DNA of 38,273 nt from positions 1 through 38,273 of IMG/VR virus record IMGVR_UViG_2639762987_000013; one strand, written 5' to 3'. The notes below the pieces were generated by a model. It was not told the DNA's origin, did no database searches, and saw nothing but the letters and a program-made list of their open reading frames with translations. Of this stretch, positions 13,673-37,564 are shown piece by piece; position 1 is the stretch's first letter; each line of letters opens with the position of its first letter. This stretch comes from a virus. Its lineage: Duplodnaviria > Heunggongvirae > Uroviricota > Caudoviricetes. The translations under genes were made by a program, and so were the position numbers.

Positions 13673-13920
13673 TGCGATGTTATCGGTGCGGTGAATGCAA
13701 AGAAGATAACCGCTTCCGACCAAATCAACCTTACTGGAATCGATGGTGTCTCCGGTGTGAAAGAACACCAACAGGGGTGTTACCACTACCGCAGGAAAAG
13801 GAGGACGTGTGGCGAGACAGCGACGAAGTTTCACCGACATCATCTGTGAAAACTGCAAATACCTTCCAACGAAACGCTCCAGAAATAAACGCAAGCCAAT
13901 CCCAAAAGAATCTGACGTAA
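13669..13920 (+). CDS. ninD: NinD-like Cys-rich (zinc-finger-like) protein, 83 aa; extended relative to lambda NinD and overlapping ninE
   Basis: [16 protein letters not shown]...CLRCE; ORF reads through the position where a stop is expected. Confidence 0.5.
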
Positions 13921-30731: not shown

Positions 30732-32138
30732 ATGGCTACTTGGCAAGGAACAAATGGCGGATTGTTGGCTGGTATCGGTGGTGTCAACTCAAACGCTCCG
30801 AGCGTAAATGACATCGGCAACACGCTTCAGCTTATCAGGCAGAACAATGATATTGAGCGTTCAGGCTCTAACAATGTTGGGCTGACAGCTTTGCAAGGTC
30901 TTTCTGGTATTGCGGGGGTGTTTCAGCAGGAAAAGCAGGCTCAGCGGCAGAAAGAATTTCAGCAGGCGTACGCTAATGCTTATGCGTCTGGTGATCGCGG
31001 TGCTTTGCGTAAGTTGGCTACTCAATATCCAGACCAGATTGAATCCGTTCGTAAAGGCATGGGATTCATTGATGAAGAGCAGCGTAATTCTATCGGCACC
31101 TTAGCGGCTGGCGCACGCCTTGCGTCATCGTCTCCAGAAGCAATGCAATCATGGCTGCAAAACAACGCCAAGGAACTGACTCGCGTCGGTGTTGACCCTA
31201 ACAGCGTTGCTCAGATGTATCAGCAGAATCCTTCAGGATTTGGTGAGTTTGTTGATCACCTTGGAATGGCTGCTCTTGGTCCGATTGATTACTTCAATGT
31301 TCAGGACAAGATGGCTGGTCGTGAGATTGACCGAGGCGGGCTGGCAGAGACAATCCGCAGCAATCAGGCTGGTGAAGCACTTCAGGCGAGAGGGCAAAAC
31401 CTTTCCTATCAGTCAGCAATGACTGGGCACAATATCGCAGCACAACGCTTGGCTCTGGATCAGCAAGAGTTCGGGTTTAAGATGCAGCAAGCGCAGGAAA
31501 AGGCTCAGCAGTTGATTAGCGAAGCACCTAAGCTGTCAGTAAACATGGAAAAAGGCATCGAGACGGCTGTAAACAATGCCACAGCATCATCAAACTCAGC
31601 CAATTCCATGAGTGCGCTTGCTCAACAGTTCAGAGCAGAAAAACCAACGACCGGCTTGTTCGGTAACGCACAGAACATGTTCGCAAAACTTACCGGAAGC
31701 GATACGACATTGCGTGATTTGCGCATTCGCCAAAATGCCCTTGTTAACAGTCAGGTTCTTAAATTCCTACCTCCCGGCCCAGCAACGGATAAAGACGTTG
31801 AGATCGTTCGACAGGGTGCGCCAACTGACATGGATAACCCTGAGACGGTCGCAAGATGGCTTGATGCAATGGCAAACCTTGAGCGACGAAACGCGCAGTT
31901 TAATGAGTTTAAAGCTGAGTGGATGAGCGCGAATGGCAACCCTGGACAATCGCGTAATGGCGGTCAGATATTGGGGTTGGATGTTAAAAAAGGTGAATCA
32001 TTGGGGAGTGCCGTTAAGCGGTATATGTCAATGAATACTGACGCAGCGCCAGCACAAGATTCGACACCTTCAGGAGAACCACGGAATCAGGTTGGATCAT
32101 ATACCTCAAAATCAGGCATTCAATTTACGGTGGAATGA
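30732..32138 (+). CDS. Ejection protein, gp20-type, 468 aa
   Basis: Size and position in P22-like order. Confidence 0.7.
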
Positions 32139-33982
32139 TGAAAGTAACTGCAAACGGTAAGACATTTACCTTTCCTGATGGTACGAGCACCGAAGATATT
32201 GGCACCGCCATTGATGAGTATTTTGCTGGTCAGGCTGTTCAGCAACAAACAGTTAATCAGGCCAATAATGCACCAACACGGGAAGAACCATCATTGATGC
32301 AACAAGCTGGCGATTGGCTCACTGGTGGTCAAAGTGCAGGGCAAATTGCGGAACAGGCTGGTCGTGGTCTGGTAAACATACCATTTGACGTATTGCAGGG
32401 CGGCGCAAGTCTGATTAATGCAATCAGCCAGGGGCTTGGTGGCCCCAAGGTTTTGGACGATGTCTATCGTCCAGTCGATCGACCAACAGACCCTTATGCG
32501 CAAGCTGGAGAAACAATTGGCGGGTATTTAGTTCCAGGAGTTGGAACGGCAGGAAGCATGGCTATTGGATCACTGGCAGAGGCCGCAAATCAGAAAGGCG
32601 ATTTCGCACAAAATGCAGCTAAAAATGCCGGAGTTAACCTTGCCGCTCAGGGGGTTCTTTCCGCAGCAGCAAAGGGAATAGGGCGTGGAATAACGGCTAT
32701 AAAAGGTGATATTGCGCCAGAAGTGGCGAAGAAAATTGCCACATCAGAATCGATGGGCGTGACACCAATGACATCTGATGTTATCCCGCCGAAAAATGCT
32801 TTCACTCGCGGCCTAACTCAGGATGCCGAGGGGGCTTTGCTCGGGACAGGCTCAAAGCGAGCGGAGCAATATGCAACGCGTAGTAAGCTGGTAAGTAATT
32901 ATTTTGACCGTTTTGGTGAGTACAACCCTGATGATGTGGTGAAATCTCTTACCACCACGTTAAGGGGGCGGAAGGATGCCGCTGGCGCTGTTATCAATGA
33001 CGTCACCAATAAAATGGGTAATGCCGCAGTTGATACCACAAATACCATGAATGCTCTGAATACAGCGATCGCAAGACAGGAACGGCTTGGGACGTCTGCC
33101 AATCAAAGCCTGCTTACATCCTTGCGTAACCTACGTGAAGAATTAGCAAACCCTGCAACTGATTTGGATGTTACGTTTGATCTCTTGCGTCAGCACAGAA
33201 CAGCATTTAGATCTAATGTTCAGGGAGATGCTATGGTCTTCCCAAACCAGGCAAAAGCAGCTACCAATATGGTAGAGAATGCAATGTCAAAAGATCTTCG
33301 TAACGCAGTTGCAAAAAACCTCGGTGCATCAGACGCAGCAAAATACCTTAAAGCAAATTCCGATTATGCAAACGTTTATAATAAGGTGCTTAATAAAAAC
33401 ATTGCTAACAAGCTCAACAAGGCAAGCAGTGAAGCCAGTCCTGAACTTATAAATACCGTTGTATTAAGCAGAAAACCATCTGACGTGAAACGAATCTGGA
33501 GCGCATTGGATAATAAAGGGAAAGATGCTATGCGTGCAGCTTATGTCAGCAAAATAGCGGAAAAGGCCGGTGACTCTCCAGCCAAGTTCATCACTGAAGT
33601 TAATAAGCTGAAATCTCAGTCAGGCGGTGAAATTTACAACACTATTTTTTCTGGAAAGCACATGAAAGAGCTTGATTCTCTTCATGAAGTTCTACAGCAA
33701 ACAGCAAGGTCAGACACCGCAAATGTAGTAACTCAGACGGGGCAATCGCAAGCCAACAGGATAAGGACGATTGGCGCAACTGCGACTCTTGGCGTATCAA
33801 TGGGGCTTGAGGCTGGTTTCGGTGCAATGATGCGCTTGTATGAGTCAAAAGCAGCAAGGAATGCTCTCTTACGTTTGGCAAACACCAAAGCAGGAACACC
33901 AGCCTATGAAAGAGCGCTAAATAATGCTGCAAATGCGATACGCCCTATACTTTCAAGCCAAATTACAGCAGAACAGCAATAA
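32135..33982 (+). CDS. Ejection protein, gp16-type, 615 aa
   Basis: Size and position in P22-like order; ATGA overlap with gp20. Confidence 0.7.
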
Positions 33983-33995
33983 AAATAAGATATAA

Positions 33996-34481
33996 CTATC
34001 TGATATTACTGCTACTGTTGCATGTTACCGTGTTTCCAAATCCTGAATTGCAGTTTGTATATGTGTCAACGCGTGTTGGGTAAGGTTGAGTTATAACAGG
34101 CTGGCGCGCTTTTTGCTCGATCGCTTGCATTGTGTTTACAGCCTGATAATTCAATAAAGCCTGCTGGAATGCTTGGCTTTGTGCTATTTGTTGTGCTTGT
34201 TCTTGGCTTTGTAATTGAACATAAAGATTCTGAAGTTCAAGTCTTGCCTGTGTGTCACTTATCTTGCCTTCATCGACACCTTGCCCGAGCATCTTCGCAG
34301 CAAGGACATACAGCTTAGGTGTTGGTGCTGATGCCATGCGAGAGTCGTTCTTCAAGCTGGCATCAAGGCAATTAGCCATATCGCTAAGCTTTGGATAGCG
34401 TTGCTCGCAACTTGCCTGATAGTCGCTTACTTTTGCGCACCCAGCCAGCAGAAGCGGGATAATTAACAGTGATTTTTTCAT
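33996..34481 (-). CDS. Predicted lipoprotein (signal peptide MKKSLLIIPLLLAGC, lipobox LAGC; Gln-rich helical region; Cys-containing C-terminus), 161 aa
   Basis: ATG 34481 with AAGGAG RBS; lipobox read from sequence; antisense to the late operon, in the sieA/immI slot. Confidence 0.6.
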   Translation of the reverse strand: MKKSLLIIPLLLAGCAKVSDYQASCEQRYPKLSDMANCLDASLKNDSRMASAPTPKLYVLAAKMLGQGVDEGKISDTQARLELQNLYVQLQSQEQAQQIAQSQAFQQALLNYQAVNTMQAIEQKARQPVITQPYPTRVDTYTNCNSGFGNTVTCNSSSNIR

Positions 34482-34515
34482 ATAATTAACTCTCCTTAGT
34501 TTTGCGCAGGATACC

Positions 34516-34881
34516 ATGAAAAAAGTTAACATTGGAAACGTACCAAAGATGCTCGTTCCGCTCTTTGAGAGCGGTACAATTGTGTTTTGTAGAGACTTTC
34601 CAGAATGGCAACGCCTGCATCAAAAACTTGGCGTTGACGTGCATGACTCGGACGCCAACGGAGCGTCTCATACAATGAGTAGCGAGAATGGTGTTTTGCA
34701 TGTGATAGGCGTGTTCAATGGCAAACTATCTACTATTGCCCATGAGTGCGCTCACATGGCATTCGATATCTGCTCAAGGGTAGGTGTTGATGTTGAACCA
34801 GGAAGAGCCAACGAGACTTACTGCTACTTAATGAGCAGGCTTGTTGAGTTCTGCGAGCGACATATCAAAAAGCCGGAGTGA
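34516..34881 (+). CDS. Small HExxH-motif protein (IAHECAHMAFDI), possible minimal zinc metallopeptidase, 121 aa
   Basis: HEXXH motif read from translation; stop lies in a bidirectional terminator hairpin (34871-34888). Confidence 0.5.
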   Translation: MKKVNIGNVPKMLVPLFESGTIVFCRDFPEWQRLHQKLGVDVHDSDANGASHTMSSENGVLHVIGVFNGKLSTIAHECAHMAFDICSRVGVDVEPGRANETYCYLMSRLVEFCERHIKKPE

Positions 34882-34888
34882 CCCGGCT
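34871..34888. terminator. Bidirectional intrinsic terminator between convergent genes (AGCCGG-loop-CCGGCT with T-tracts on both strands)
   Basis: Read from sequence. Confidence 0.55.
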
Positions 34889-34894
34889 TGATTA

Positions 34895-35074
34895 TTACTT
34901 TTTGCTGTCTGGAGTTCGCTTATCCAATACCCAGCCATGACCTGGCTTTGTTGTTGGTGGAAGCCTTTCGTTGTCCTTGACGGTTGCAAAATTGTCTTTC
35001 TTACCGCCGCGTGGGCCAACTTCTTGGTATATTCCGCCGTTTTTTCCTGTGTTTTCACCTGGTTTTTTCGCCAT
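34895..35074 (-). CDS. YjzC-like small protein, 59 aa (MAKKPGENTGKNGGIYQEVGPRGG...LPPTTKPGHGW...)
   Basis: Pattern KPGE...G.Y.E.G..G.......V..GE.LPPTT...W resembles YjzC-like family (from memory); GAGG RBS before ATG 35074; candidate sigma70 promoter (TTGACT/17 bp/AATATT) at 35111-35139 on minus strand. Confidence 0.45.
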   Translation of the reverse strand: MAKKPGENTGKNGGIYQEVGPRGGKKDNFATVKDNERLPPTTKPGHGWVLDKRTPDSKK

Positions 35075-35147
35075 GATATACCTCAACATACACCCGTTAT
35101 TGGGCGATTAAATATTGATCTCATTTTATAAGTAGTCAATATGGCCC

Positions 35148-35172
35148 AGGTAAATGCAAAAATTAACCCACC
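35148..35172. terminator. Hairpin terminator downstream of mnt (AACCCACC-TTCA-GGTGGGTT + T-tract)
   Basis: Read from sequence. Confidence 0.5.
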
Positions 35173-35173
35173 T

Positions 35174-35425
35174 TCAGGTGGGTTTTTTGTACAAATCCTT
35201 CAGCGTATCAAACACCATCTTCTTAACAAGCTCTGACTGCTCATCAGCGATGCGTTCCGCATCGTCTCGATAGCCTGAAATTTTGGATGGCTTTGATACA
35301 GCATCAGTCACTATCTGAACTAATTCTGAATTAAGAGAGCGGCCATTGGATTTGGCTCGCTGTTTTAGTTTTTCCTTTAATTCGTAAGGTAGCCGCAGAT
35401 TAAATTGCGGGTCATCTCTTCCCAT
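35174..35425 (-). CDS. mnt: Mnt repressor (Arc/MetJ ribbon-helix-helix), 83 aa
   Basis: MGRDDPQFNLRLPYELKEKLK.RA..NGRS.NSEL.QIV.DA.SKPS...GYR.DAERIADEQSELVKKMVFDTLKDLYKK matches recalled P22 Mnt. Confidence 0.85.
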   Translation of the reverse strand: MGRDDPQFNLRLPYELKEKLKQRAKSNGRSLNSELVQIVTDAVSKPSKISGYRDDAERIADEQSELVKKMVFDTLKDLYKKPT

Positions 35426-35489
35426 TCTTGATGCCTCGCTTTTGTGAGTGGATCGGCATCTTATTATCTGCTGATTGCATCCTCAATAA

Positions 35490-35502
35490 GACCACGGTGG
35501 TC
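35490..35502. promoter_or_regulatory. O_mnt-like operator (GACCACGGTGGTC) within Pant-equivalent region upstream of tailspike
   Basis: Near-palindrome with the same CACGGTG core as the P22 mnt operator (recalled as TCCACGGTGGA). Confidence 0.5.
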
Positions 35503-35572
35503 GTATTTTTTTGATTAATAATGCATCACTGCGGCAATGCTGCGGCGATTCCTTGTATCTGGAGCAAATTAA

Positions 35573-37564
35573 ATGACAGACATTACAGCCAATGTTGTAG
35601 TGAGCATGCCTTCGCAACTCTTCACTATGGCGCGTTCTTTTAAAGCCGTAGCTAATGGCAAAATTTATATCGGTAAAATTGACACTGACCCGGTAAATCC
35701 TGATAACCAGATTCAGGTCTATGTTGAGAACGAAGATGGTTCTCACGTTCCTGTTGCACAGCCAATCGTCATCAATGCCGCTGGGTATCCAGTATATAAC
35801 GGACAGATTGCCAAATTCGTAACTGTGCAAGGCCATTCTATGGCTGTTTATGATGCATGTGGTGCGCAGCAGTTCTATTTTCCAAATGTGCTGAAGTATG
35901 ACCCGGATCAGTTAAGGCAGGAGTTAGCAAGTTCAGGTGATGATCTTGGAGATGCATTAATAGCAGTAAAACAACCATTCACCTTGTCAATAAGAAGGAC
36001 GCAGCATCAAAAAAATGCCGAGCACATTAGTGTTAGTGATTTTGGTGCAAAAGGAGACGGCATAACAGATGATACTGTAGCAATTCAAAATGCTATTAAT
36101 GCAGTACCAGAAGGGGCTATACTTGGATTTTATGGTGGTGAATTTGTTTTTGATAAGGTTGAATTGCTTAAGCCAATAACATTGGTTGGTGATGCAACGT
36201 TAATTCACAACGGATTTAGAATAAAATCTAGCAGAATACGATCACTTTTATCTGGTGTTCAGAAATGCAAGGATTACTCCGAGTCTTCAAGAGCATTTTA
36301 TTGCTATGCAAATGAAGACCAAAGAGATTATGACGATATTCAGATTTTGTTTAATAGATTTGAAGGTTTCTTTTACTCTACGGCATTTGTTGCAAAAAAC
36401 TATTATTTGGAGAATGACCCTAATTCAAGAACTGTCAAAAATACAAAAGTAATAGGATGTACATCAGTTGCTCCTGATTCTGTAAATGCCGGTCATTTTC
36501 AACATATAGGCGTTACAAATGCTGAAACATCACATAACTCAACTTATGGCGGACAAAATGCAACATCATACAACTTCATTAACCAGAATGGATTTGTAAG
36601 GATTATAGGAAATTATGACCATAACAATAGCTATGGTTCATGTGAGCTTGAGAACTCAATGGTGAGTAACTCAGTCATATCATGTAATACGTTTTCGTCA
36701 TATTTATGGGTGGATGATACAAGTAATGTTACTATTTCTGGAAATACAGTTTCATCAAGGATCAAAGTAACATCGCAAACTGACGATGTTCATAATATAA
36801 CCATATCAGCAAATACCACAAAACGGATTACTATAGAGCAATTTGGAGAATCTCCGACAGGTCTGGTATATGGTGCATTAATTTCCTGTAACACTATTAC
36901 TGGCGACAGTGATGGAAGTTCAGACATTTTATGTACGTCACTTGTTACAGGTGAAATTTCATCAAATTATTGTCATGGATCAGAAAAAAATATATCAATT
37001 GTCCGCCTGGATTCTTCTGATATAACTGTTAGAAACAATAAAGGAAACAAAGGATTACTTACAATAAGTAACGATGGTGGGAGGATAATTGAATATGGCA
37101 ATGATTCTATGGTTCTGTCTGGAAGCATAGATAGCAGACATATACATAATTTATTACAACCAGACACATCGTATTTAGATCTACCGGGGAAATATCTGCA
37201 CGGAACTAAATATACTGGCAGTATCCCCCCCGGTTCCACAGGAACTGTATCACTTCAAATACCATCAGGGGCAAGCCTTGTTTTCAGGGGTGTTTCTATA
37301 TGGGTTCTAATTAGAGATGTTAGCAATAACAATATATCGTCATTCAGAATTGATGGTTCATATAGAGTTGTTGGTGGAAGTGTTGGTCTTAGTTTTGCTG
37401 ATGCTTATTCGAAACTCGGGGTGGATGCAAACTCTATAACAGTGTCAAACAATAACAGCACTTCTGACAATATCAGCATAGCAATTAAAAACACAGATTC
37501 ATCAAAAACCCTTCAGGTTACTGTTATGCCGGAGGTTTCAAGCAGGTTAGGTATTGAGGAATAG
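35573..37564 (+). CDS. Tailspike: P22-type N-terminal head-binding domain fused to a distinct right-handed beta-helix (pectate-lyase-like) receptor-binding domain, 663 aa
   Basis: First ~110 aa ([11 protein letters not shown]...[33 protein letters not shown]......INAAG..VYNGQ......VQGHSMA.YDA.G.Q.....NVLKYDPDQ) match P22 gp9; remainder starts with beta-helix motif [22 protein letters not shown] and is Asn/Ser/Thr-rich. Confidence 0.9.

Follow-up and report, generated by a model that had tools for sequence, protein, structure and literature searches.

The 38,273-nucleotide (nt) stretch of DNA considered here, IMG/VR virus record IMGVR_UViG_2639762987_000013 at its full length and hereafter the window, is a P22-like prophage-type genome, and its interval between gp16 (32135-33982, + strand), the left-hand neighbour, and mnt (35174-35425, - strand) was found to hold a new combination of genes inside a known, published variable locus. 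Three open reading frames (ORFs) in alternating orientation occupy this interval: a gene for a 161 amino acid (aa) lipoprotein (33996..34481, - strand), a 121-aa homologue of hkcC with a zincin-type motif (34516..34881, + strand) and a 59-aa homologue of orf59a/hkcD (34895..35074, - strand). The interval is probably built from three separately exchangeable modules and not from one system. What is new is the HkcC family with its HExxH...E motif, the mobility of hkcC and orf59a as a convergent pair and the conserved predicted promoter of orf59a; the leads most worth following are the lipoprotein as a candidate exclusion factor, the plug-in slot in which it sits, and the probable zincins of the HkcC family together with the gene that moves with them. 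A first-pass annotation of the same DNA had the three small genes and their alternating orientation right, but could not assign their combination to a described system; the genes assort independently, and for the most part the finding, as submitted, described again a variable region that was already known.

In P22-like phages the interval between genes 16 and 9 has been named the "ant moron", and its P22 version includes hkcC and 59a (Villafane et al. 2008, PMC2629481). The published order of this ant moron, or immI region, is sieA-hkcC-orf59a-mnt-arc-ant in P22 and hkcB-hkcC-hkcD in HK620 (PMC2629481), the gene 16-gene 9 region is highly variable (PMC8022706) and the gene 16/9 junction is strongly transcribed in the BTP1 lysogen (PMC7067206). 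With strands added, P22 reads 16, sieA (-), the ORF equivalent to hkcC (+), a terminator, orf59a (-) and mnt (-), and HK620 reads 16, hkcB (-), hkcC (+), tORF59A and hkcD (-). In the window gp16 and the gene for a tailspike with a P22 head-binding domain flank the interval, which therefore shares its location between gene 16 and gene 9 homologues with P22 and HK620, and megablast gave matches to P22, HK620 and ST160. Positions 34488-35272, which hold hkcC and the 59-codon gene, are 97.3% identical in nucleotide sequence to P22, and identity across hkcC, orf59a, the bidirectional terminator and mnt is 97% with P22 and 97-99% with HK620. This identifies the HExxH gene as hkcC and the YjzC-like gene as orf59a/hkcD, and the lipoprotein alone stands in the sieA/hkcB position. 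All three genes had been assigned to the place of sieA, but P22 has hkcC and orf59a beside sieA and only the unrelated lipoprotein replaces it. The window also differs in being without arc, sar and ant; no arc or ant ORF was found between 35426 and 35572, so that of the mnt-arc-sar-ant set mnt alone is present, abutting the tailspike gene as it does in ST160, SE1 and Gally. The description of the island as moron-like was right, though already published as the ant moron; one of the three genes, hkcC, is co-oriented with the late operon. The segment 33900-35500 is 100% identical to a prophage in E. coli IR53017.

The distribution of the three genes was followed through 5426 complete E. coli genomes. 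Of these, 186 had the lipoprotein gene and 132 some part of the hkcC/orf59a block, with hkcC and orf59a together in 113 of the block-bearing genomes (86% linkage), whereas the lipoprotein gene adjoined hkcC in just 18 genomes and all three genes were found together with mnt in 15. P22, HK620 and siphovirus-type prophages carry hkcC and orf59a without the lipoprotein. The first-pass annotation had suggested looking for co-occurrence as a unit across P22-like prophages and had named independent occurrence as grounds for abandoning the idea; since the genes assort independently the unit fails by that measure, and the co-occurrence counts together with a lone lipoprotein gene in Yersinia rule it out. 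That lipoprotein, HExxH protein and YjzC-like protein could nevertheless form a single three-component accessory system, for defence or as a toxin, that replaces sieA is very improbable: the genes are adjacent and compact, and the trio recurs in the 15-18 E. coli genomes and once more, some 60% diverged, in a prophage of Morganella (L017), but P22 itself carries two of the three beside sieA, of the 186 genomes with the lipoprotein only 18 have it beside hkcC, it has other partners in enterohaemorrhagic E. coli (EHEC), in O104:H4 and in phage Gally, the adjacent sister prophages in Morganella (L016, L018) have different slot genes, and an exported lipoprotein is in a different compartment from two proteins without signal peptides. 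None of the three proteins matched a known defence system in PADLOC-DB 2.0 at E<=1.

The sieA position and its lipoprotein

Alignment of the window with P22 showed the two to be identical but for one base from inside hkcC to the TAAGGAG Shine-Dalgarno (SD) sequence of the leftward gene, the similarity ending between the SD and the start codon of that gene. The expression region of the slot gene (34482..34546, - strand) comprises the SD AAGGAG (34497-34492) and the equivalent of PsieA, and overlaps the 5' end of hkcC; the putative PsieA annotated in P22 (P22-pbi 13861-13891) corresponds to window 34516-34546, within that 5' end. A survey of 80 IMG/VR loci (L024-L103) in which hkcC is at least 98% identical revealed at least 12 unrelated families of leftward gene. 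The 161-aa lipoprotein was found at 17 of the 80 loci, a 129-aa secreted protein at 12, SieA at 10, an HkcB-type protein at nine and a 75-aa membrane protein at eight, the remaining 24 comprising seven further families and one locus without a called ORF. An N-terminal signal peptide or transmembrane segment is present in 11 of the 12 families. When the junctions of 77 loci were compared, the non-lipoprotein cassettes, of which there are at least 11 unrelated ones, were found to have ACTAAGGAGGTTGGTGTG in common and to diverge immediately 3' of the GTG start codon, so that the recombination joint coincides with the start codon; the lipoprotein cassette diverges directly 3' of AAGGAG and has brought its own ATG. 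Judged from these junctions, the slot appears to behave as a fixed expression site with swappable envelope proteins. In a metagenomic P22-like locus (L015, 209-562) the slot gene encodes a protein of the Rap1a family (PF18602, 56 bits), the members of which Pfam describes as immunity proteins.

The lipoprotein begins MKKSLLIIPLLLAGC, and its signal sequence MKKSLLIIPLLLAG precedes C15 in a lipobox, LLAG before C15, that fits the pattern [LVI][ASTVI][GAS]C, with G14 and C15 invariant in 29 homologues. Ala occupies position +2, which under the Lol rule of E. coli directs sorting to the outer membrane. Two pairs of cysteines, 25/38 and 143/154, fit an oxidising, exported location; C25 and C38 are invariant in the family, and C154 has C143 as its partner in the window variant. 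At the C-terminus (window 33996-34100) two alternative tails occur in the family, ...PYPTRVDTxTNCNSGFGNTVTCNSSSNIR or ...PPVQLQNNNVTTNCTTYGNQTRCQSY, each with a Cys pair and each preceded by the conserved N-terminal domain and a Gln-rich helix, and these may be a swapped specificity module. The 90 homologues are all from Enterobacterales and none has a functional name; the family corresponds to phrog_6067 (function not annotated), and no Pfam, NCBIfam or PADLOC model matched the protein.

In every genus examined the lipoprotein gene directly follows, and is convergent with, a gene of the P22 gp16 family, and this position is kept in E. coli, Morganella, Serratia, Yersinia and Providencia regardless of the other flank. 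The neighbour on that flank varies widely. It is an Arc-family gene in EHEC, a 104-aa gene with mnt-arc-ant in O104:H4, a Bro-N gene in Serratia and mnt in Providencia, and in Yersinia ruckeri the lipoprotein gene is the sole gene from gp16 to the tailspike gene. In phage Gally and E. coli LF82 the neighbour is a second lipoprotein gene on the + strand; the Gally copy (L002, 3120-3539) encodes an unrelated 139-aa protein, MKRIIGVVAGAILLSGC, with a weak match to the PEGA domain, and stands, as in LF82, in place of hkcC and orf59a. The lipoprotein genes accompany at least two different gp16 3' ends. The gp16 of the window itself gave no significant Pfam match, and the gp16 proteins beside lipoprotein homologues in other genera carry a precomputed assignment to PF26808 (Phage_P22_gp16).

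Comparison with SieA revealed likenesses of place and differences of kind. SieA is expressed from the prophage, occurs only in P22-like prophages and acts on gp16/gp20 (Leavitt et al. 2024, PMC10883804), and a sieA fragment with 85 bp of upstream sequence is enough for exclusion (PMC10883804). The two genes share the slot, the upstream region and the SD, both are convergent with gp16 and restricted to P22-like prophages, and both products are, or are predicted to be, located in the envelope. SieA is a polytopic inner-membrane protein, with the motif FxRYPxEAxxFNK and several transmembrane helices in its types A-C (PMC10883804), whereas the lipoprotein has a lipobox and a predicted outer-membrane anchor, no transmembrane helix after its signal peptide, no FxRYPxEAxxFNK motif and no similarity to the P22 sieA region. 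Homology to SieA was accordingly set aside, as was membership of any known family of lipoproteins, exclusion proteins or defence proteins, there being neither sequence similarity nor a database match.

Lipoproteins with roles in phage exclusion or conversion include Llp of T5, Cor of phi80 and N15, Bor of lambda and Ltp of Streptococcus. The window lipoprotein resembles them in being small, in its phage origin and in standing where a gene that protects the host cell might be looked for, but has no Pfam, annotated PHROG or PADLOC match to any such family. Against siphoviruses, Llp and Cor act by blocking FhuA; since P22-like phages rely on O-antigen and a conduit of ejection proteins, another target would be expected.

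HkcC, Orf59a and their pairing

The 121-aa HkcC protein has the motif AHECAH, with H76-E77-x-x-H80 followed by E100, no signal peptide and a predicted cytoplasmic location; it is 99% identical in amino acid sequence to HkcC of HK620 and to the P22 ORFs. E100 lies 20 residues past the second His, and an HExxH motif with a Glu 20 residues later has the thermolysin-type spacing of a gluzincin. Close homologues are found in Enterobacterales prophages. When 1.84 billion representative proteins were searched with a profile, 517 clusters were returned at E<=1e-3, nearly all of 110-140 aa, and in 99 relatives with 25-43% identity the sole invariant columns were H76, E77, H80 and E100. The AlphaFold2 model (predicted local distance difference test, pLDDT, 89.4) has the order beta-beta-alpha-beta-beta-alpha(HExxH)-alpha(E100), that is, a beta-sheet, then the active-site helix and a second helix. 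A fold search of BFVD returned 26 phage proteins at E<=1e-3, a few of them named SprT-like or Metalloprotease, and there were weak profile matches to myroilysin and the astacins. No Pfam model, SprT-like included, matched the window HkcC at E<=1, nor did any NCBIfam model, and there was no significant match to a solved zincin; SprT-like (PF10263) gave a weak match in three of the 99 relatives, the best at E=1e-4, and at this threshold membership of that family is not established. Set beside the known minimal zincins (SprT-like PF10263, thermolysin-type gluzincins and the astacin-like myroilysin), HkcC has the motif and the spacing in just 121 aa with no extra domain, and its profile and fold matches are weak. 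Motif and model together mark it as a probable minimal zincin, unclassified, with a predicted peptidase role, in what is a large and unclassified family of proteins of about 120 aa. With about 500 clusters at 50% identity, the family represents a widespread and unannotated putative phage zincin for which the named motif provides an experimental handle.

HkcC paralogues of 32-40% identity occur in three other phage settings: between the Rz and small terminase genes of ST64T, L and epsilon34, past the lysis genes in lambdoid mEp phages, and in a virulent N4-like Pseudomonas phage. Orf129 of ST64T (L007, 2501-2890) is such a paralogue, at 38-40% identity, and is also found in L, epsilon34 and ST104, with second copies in ST160 and SE1; no second hkcC copy of this kind was found in the window. 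In every temperate-phage context examined, those of ST64T, the siphovirus-type prophages and Xenorhabdus included, the hkcC family is co-oriented with the late operon, and in P22 late transcription must cross the region to reach gene 9 (PMC2629481). From this orientation and this read-through it follows that HkcC is probably made in lytic growth, and that the gene is probably late-expressed, not prophage-expressed.

Orf59a is a basic, Gly-rich protein of 59 aa without a signal peptide, belongs to phrog_3202 and is 98% identical to P22 orf59a. Its match to Pfam YjzC (PF14168) scored 19.4 bits (E=0.0013), below the gathering cut-off of 25 bits, but it shares the size and Gly-rich N-terminal half of that family, its distant homologues (E 1e-6 to 5e-4) carry PF14168 and UniRef calls the close ones 'YjzC family'; this chain of homologues suggests that Orf59a is related to YjzC. 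Literature searches for YjzC, and likewise for hkcC/orf59a, found no functional study.

The signals around orf59a have been kept with it. A sigma70-like promoter (35111..35139, - strand; -35 TTGACT at 35139-35134, -10 AATATT at 35116-35111) is the sole promoter-like site reported by the scan of the region, and the pattern TTGAC(T)-17 nt-(C)AATATT is kept upstream of orf59a homologues in five contexts, spanning P22-like, siphovirus-type and metagenomic ones, while spacer and flanks have diverged. The terminator hairpin between the convergent hkcC and orf59a genes (34870..34889, both strands; 'tORF59A' of HK620 and 't mnt' of P22-pbi) is kept across the same five contexts, with folding energies of -12.1 kcal/mol on the + strand and -14.5 on the - strand (z about -3.2 to -3.7). 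A second hairpin, 'tMNT' of HK620 (35165..35184, both strands), overlaps the mnt stop codon, has a strong T-run on the + strand and folds at -16.8 and -14.8 kcal/mol on the two strands, so that for the pair of hairpins the energies lie at -12 to -17 kcal/mol and z between -3.2 and -4.0. The region as a whole has eight terminator-like sites against 2.4 expected from shuffled sequences. The first-pass annotation had reported both hairpins and a promoter with varying precision: its bidirectional hairpin at 34871-34888 was recovered almost to the base, its hairpin at 35148-35172 is real but lies about 15 nt away, and its candidate sigma70 promoter is borne out by conservation but not by number, one TTGACT-17-AATATT site against 3.5 expected being no significant count. 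It had also given each gene a ribosome-binding site, and SD-like sequences do stand upstream of all three, the slot-gene AAGGAG being joined by AGGA before 34516 and GAGG before 35074. A stem-loop in the 5' leader of orf59a was no better than shuffled sequence (z = -0.95), and no compositional anomaly was detected in the GC content of the island. With a predicted promoter and a terminator of its own, also in the copies between siphovirus tail genes, orf59a has the predicted make-up of a textbook promoter-gene-terminator moron, antisense to late transcription.

Among P22-like prophages the hkcC/orf59a pair was found in E. coli, in Salmonella, in Morganella and in one metagenome; among those of siphovirus type it was found between the tail-tube/YdaY and tape-measure genes in Rosenbergiella, in Klebsiella oxytoca and in a metagenome. 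In Xenorhabdus, after the lysis genes, the partner of orf59a is a very divergent HkcC relative (HECVH...ANQE; hhalign probability 61%). Both genes were present at 69 of the 80 IMG/VR loci, and a second IMG/VR scan with a divergent-first alignment returned the same E. coli and Salmonella loci and added nothing. It is clear that hkcC and orf59a form a cassette of two convergent genes that moves as such between phage types unrelated to each other, and that they are strongly, though not obligately, linked. A 74-aa hydrophobic protein (MISAILSVLLASLF...) is encoded about 20-240 nt past hkcC in L026, L028, L061 and eight more loci, its gene convergent with hkcC and the break falling directly after the terminator hairpin. 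A toxin-antitoxin pair was considered and rejected, the genes being convergent and not co-transcribed; since each also occurs alone, a dependency of the toxin-antitoxin type is ruled out.

Proposed roles and their alternatives

The role proposed for the lipoprotein is superinfection exclusion at DNA delivery, which on position and topology is the likeliest single role and has close to an even chance of being correct. The proposal is made because SieA, which occupies this site in P22, is expressed from the prophage, is found only in P22-like prophages and works via gp16/gp20. The lipoprotein gene is plugged into the conserved upstream region and SD at the P22 site of sieA and the putative PsieA; its product would be made by lysogens, would reach the outer membrane by virtue of its Ala at +2 and would exclude superinfecting P22-like phages from the periplasmic side, as a functional analogue and not a homologue of SieA. 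If so, it would be a second, structurally different block to DNA delivery by short-tailed phages, SieA being the only such system studied so far, and the dozen cassettes of the slot would supply a ready list of candidates for exclusion at the envelope among the prophages of E. coli and Salmonella, of relevance to host range in phage therapy. Several observations weigh against this proposal. The promoter scan gave no match at the PsieA equivalent, which fits the consensus poorly and is called "putative" in the literature; no relative of the lipoprotein was detected among solved structures or known exclusion proteins; its AlphaFold2 model has a pLDDT of 61.6, the helical domain of residues 18-94 alone reaching about 80; and the Rap1a cassette means that slot genes need not all target phages, so that the slot may carry immunity to bacterial effectors beside phage exclusion. 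That same cassette lends some weight to the main rival, a conversion or immunity factor unrelated to phages, whether conferring serum or complement resistance like lambda Bor, immunity to a type VI secretion system effector that acts in the periplasm or to a colicin, or adhesion, as does the lack of resemblance to any exclusion protein, and prophage outer-membrane lipoproteins like Bor affect host fitness (cited in PMC7067206). One would expect a general fitness factor to turn up in phages of many types, however, and this family is found solely right after gp16 of P22-like prophages, in six genera, where it replaces sieA precisely and with the same expression signals; the rival is judged unlikely.

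For the other two genes it is proposed that HkcC would be a small zinc metallopeptidase made in lytic growth, from antiterminated late transcription reading through to the tailspike gene, and that Orf59a would be the product of an autonomous moron, active in the prophage and shut off once late transcription runs against it. A looser functional coupling would go further and make the pair a two-state module, in which Orf59a acts in the lysogen, late HkcC cleaves or neutralises Orf59a or its target, and convergent transcription enforces reciprocal expression. The pair with its terminator is kept at 57-63% (HkcC) and 76-86% (Orf59a) identity in three unrelated contexts (P22-like immI, siphovirus-type tail-tube/tape-measure and Xenorhabdus post-lysis), the Xenorhabdus zincin is near-unrecognisable and yet keeps its motif, and linkage stands at 86% in both the E. 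coli genomes and the IMG/VR loci. Each gene is nevertheless found without the other: 11 of the 80 IMG/VR loci have hkcC without orf59a, the 74-aa membrane protein being there instead, and S. bongori has orf59a without the zincin. Proximity alone may also keep a 560-bp cassette linked, and the coupling is a tentative idea, more doubtful than not. At the other extreme hkcC might be non-functional here, a by-product of the slot-gene promoter region or a non-catalytic remnant, in that the annotated PsieA of P22 lies within the first 31 nt of the ORF and several P22 records leave the ORF unannotated. Against this, the full-length ORF is kept down to 25-43% identity through 517 clusters with just the four motif residues invariant, the structure model is confident and homologues occur where no sieA-type promoter exists, which makes loss of function here highly improbable. 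Taken jointly, the proposals would have the sieA position as a plug-in site for at least 12 envelope proteins, the lipoprotein as a new class that blocks the P22-type ejection conduit from the outer-membrane/periplasmic side, and hkcC/orf59a as a mobile two-state module; this combined picture is judged unlikely.

The mnt border and the tailspike gene

The right-hand border of the interval is an Arc/Mnt-family repressor gene, the product of which matches Pfam Arc (E=2.8e-22) and Repressor_Mnt (E=2.2e-18) and aligns to P22 Mnt. In the window Mnt, Gln replaces His at mature residue 6, the residue known to set operator specificity. A palindrome, AAGACCACGGTGGTCGT, at 35488-35504 stands in place of the P22 Mnt operator AGGTCCACGGTGGACCT, with the symmetric change T4->A and A14->T, and its core was reported as a hairpin by the terminator scan. 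Gln6 and the changed palindrome look like a natural case of repressor/operator co-variation, and, ant being absent, transcription that enters the tailspike gene may be under the control of Mnt.

The tailspike gene (35573-37564), assigned by Pfam scan, encodes a P22-like head-binding domain, and the remainder of the protein matches a pectate-lyase-like domain. Its receptor-binding part (35950-37000) has a GC content of 0.34, against 0.45-0.51 in the adjacent structural genes, and is a horizontally exchanged module.

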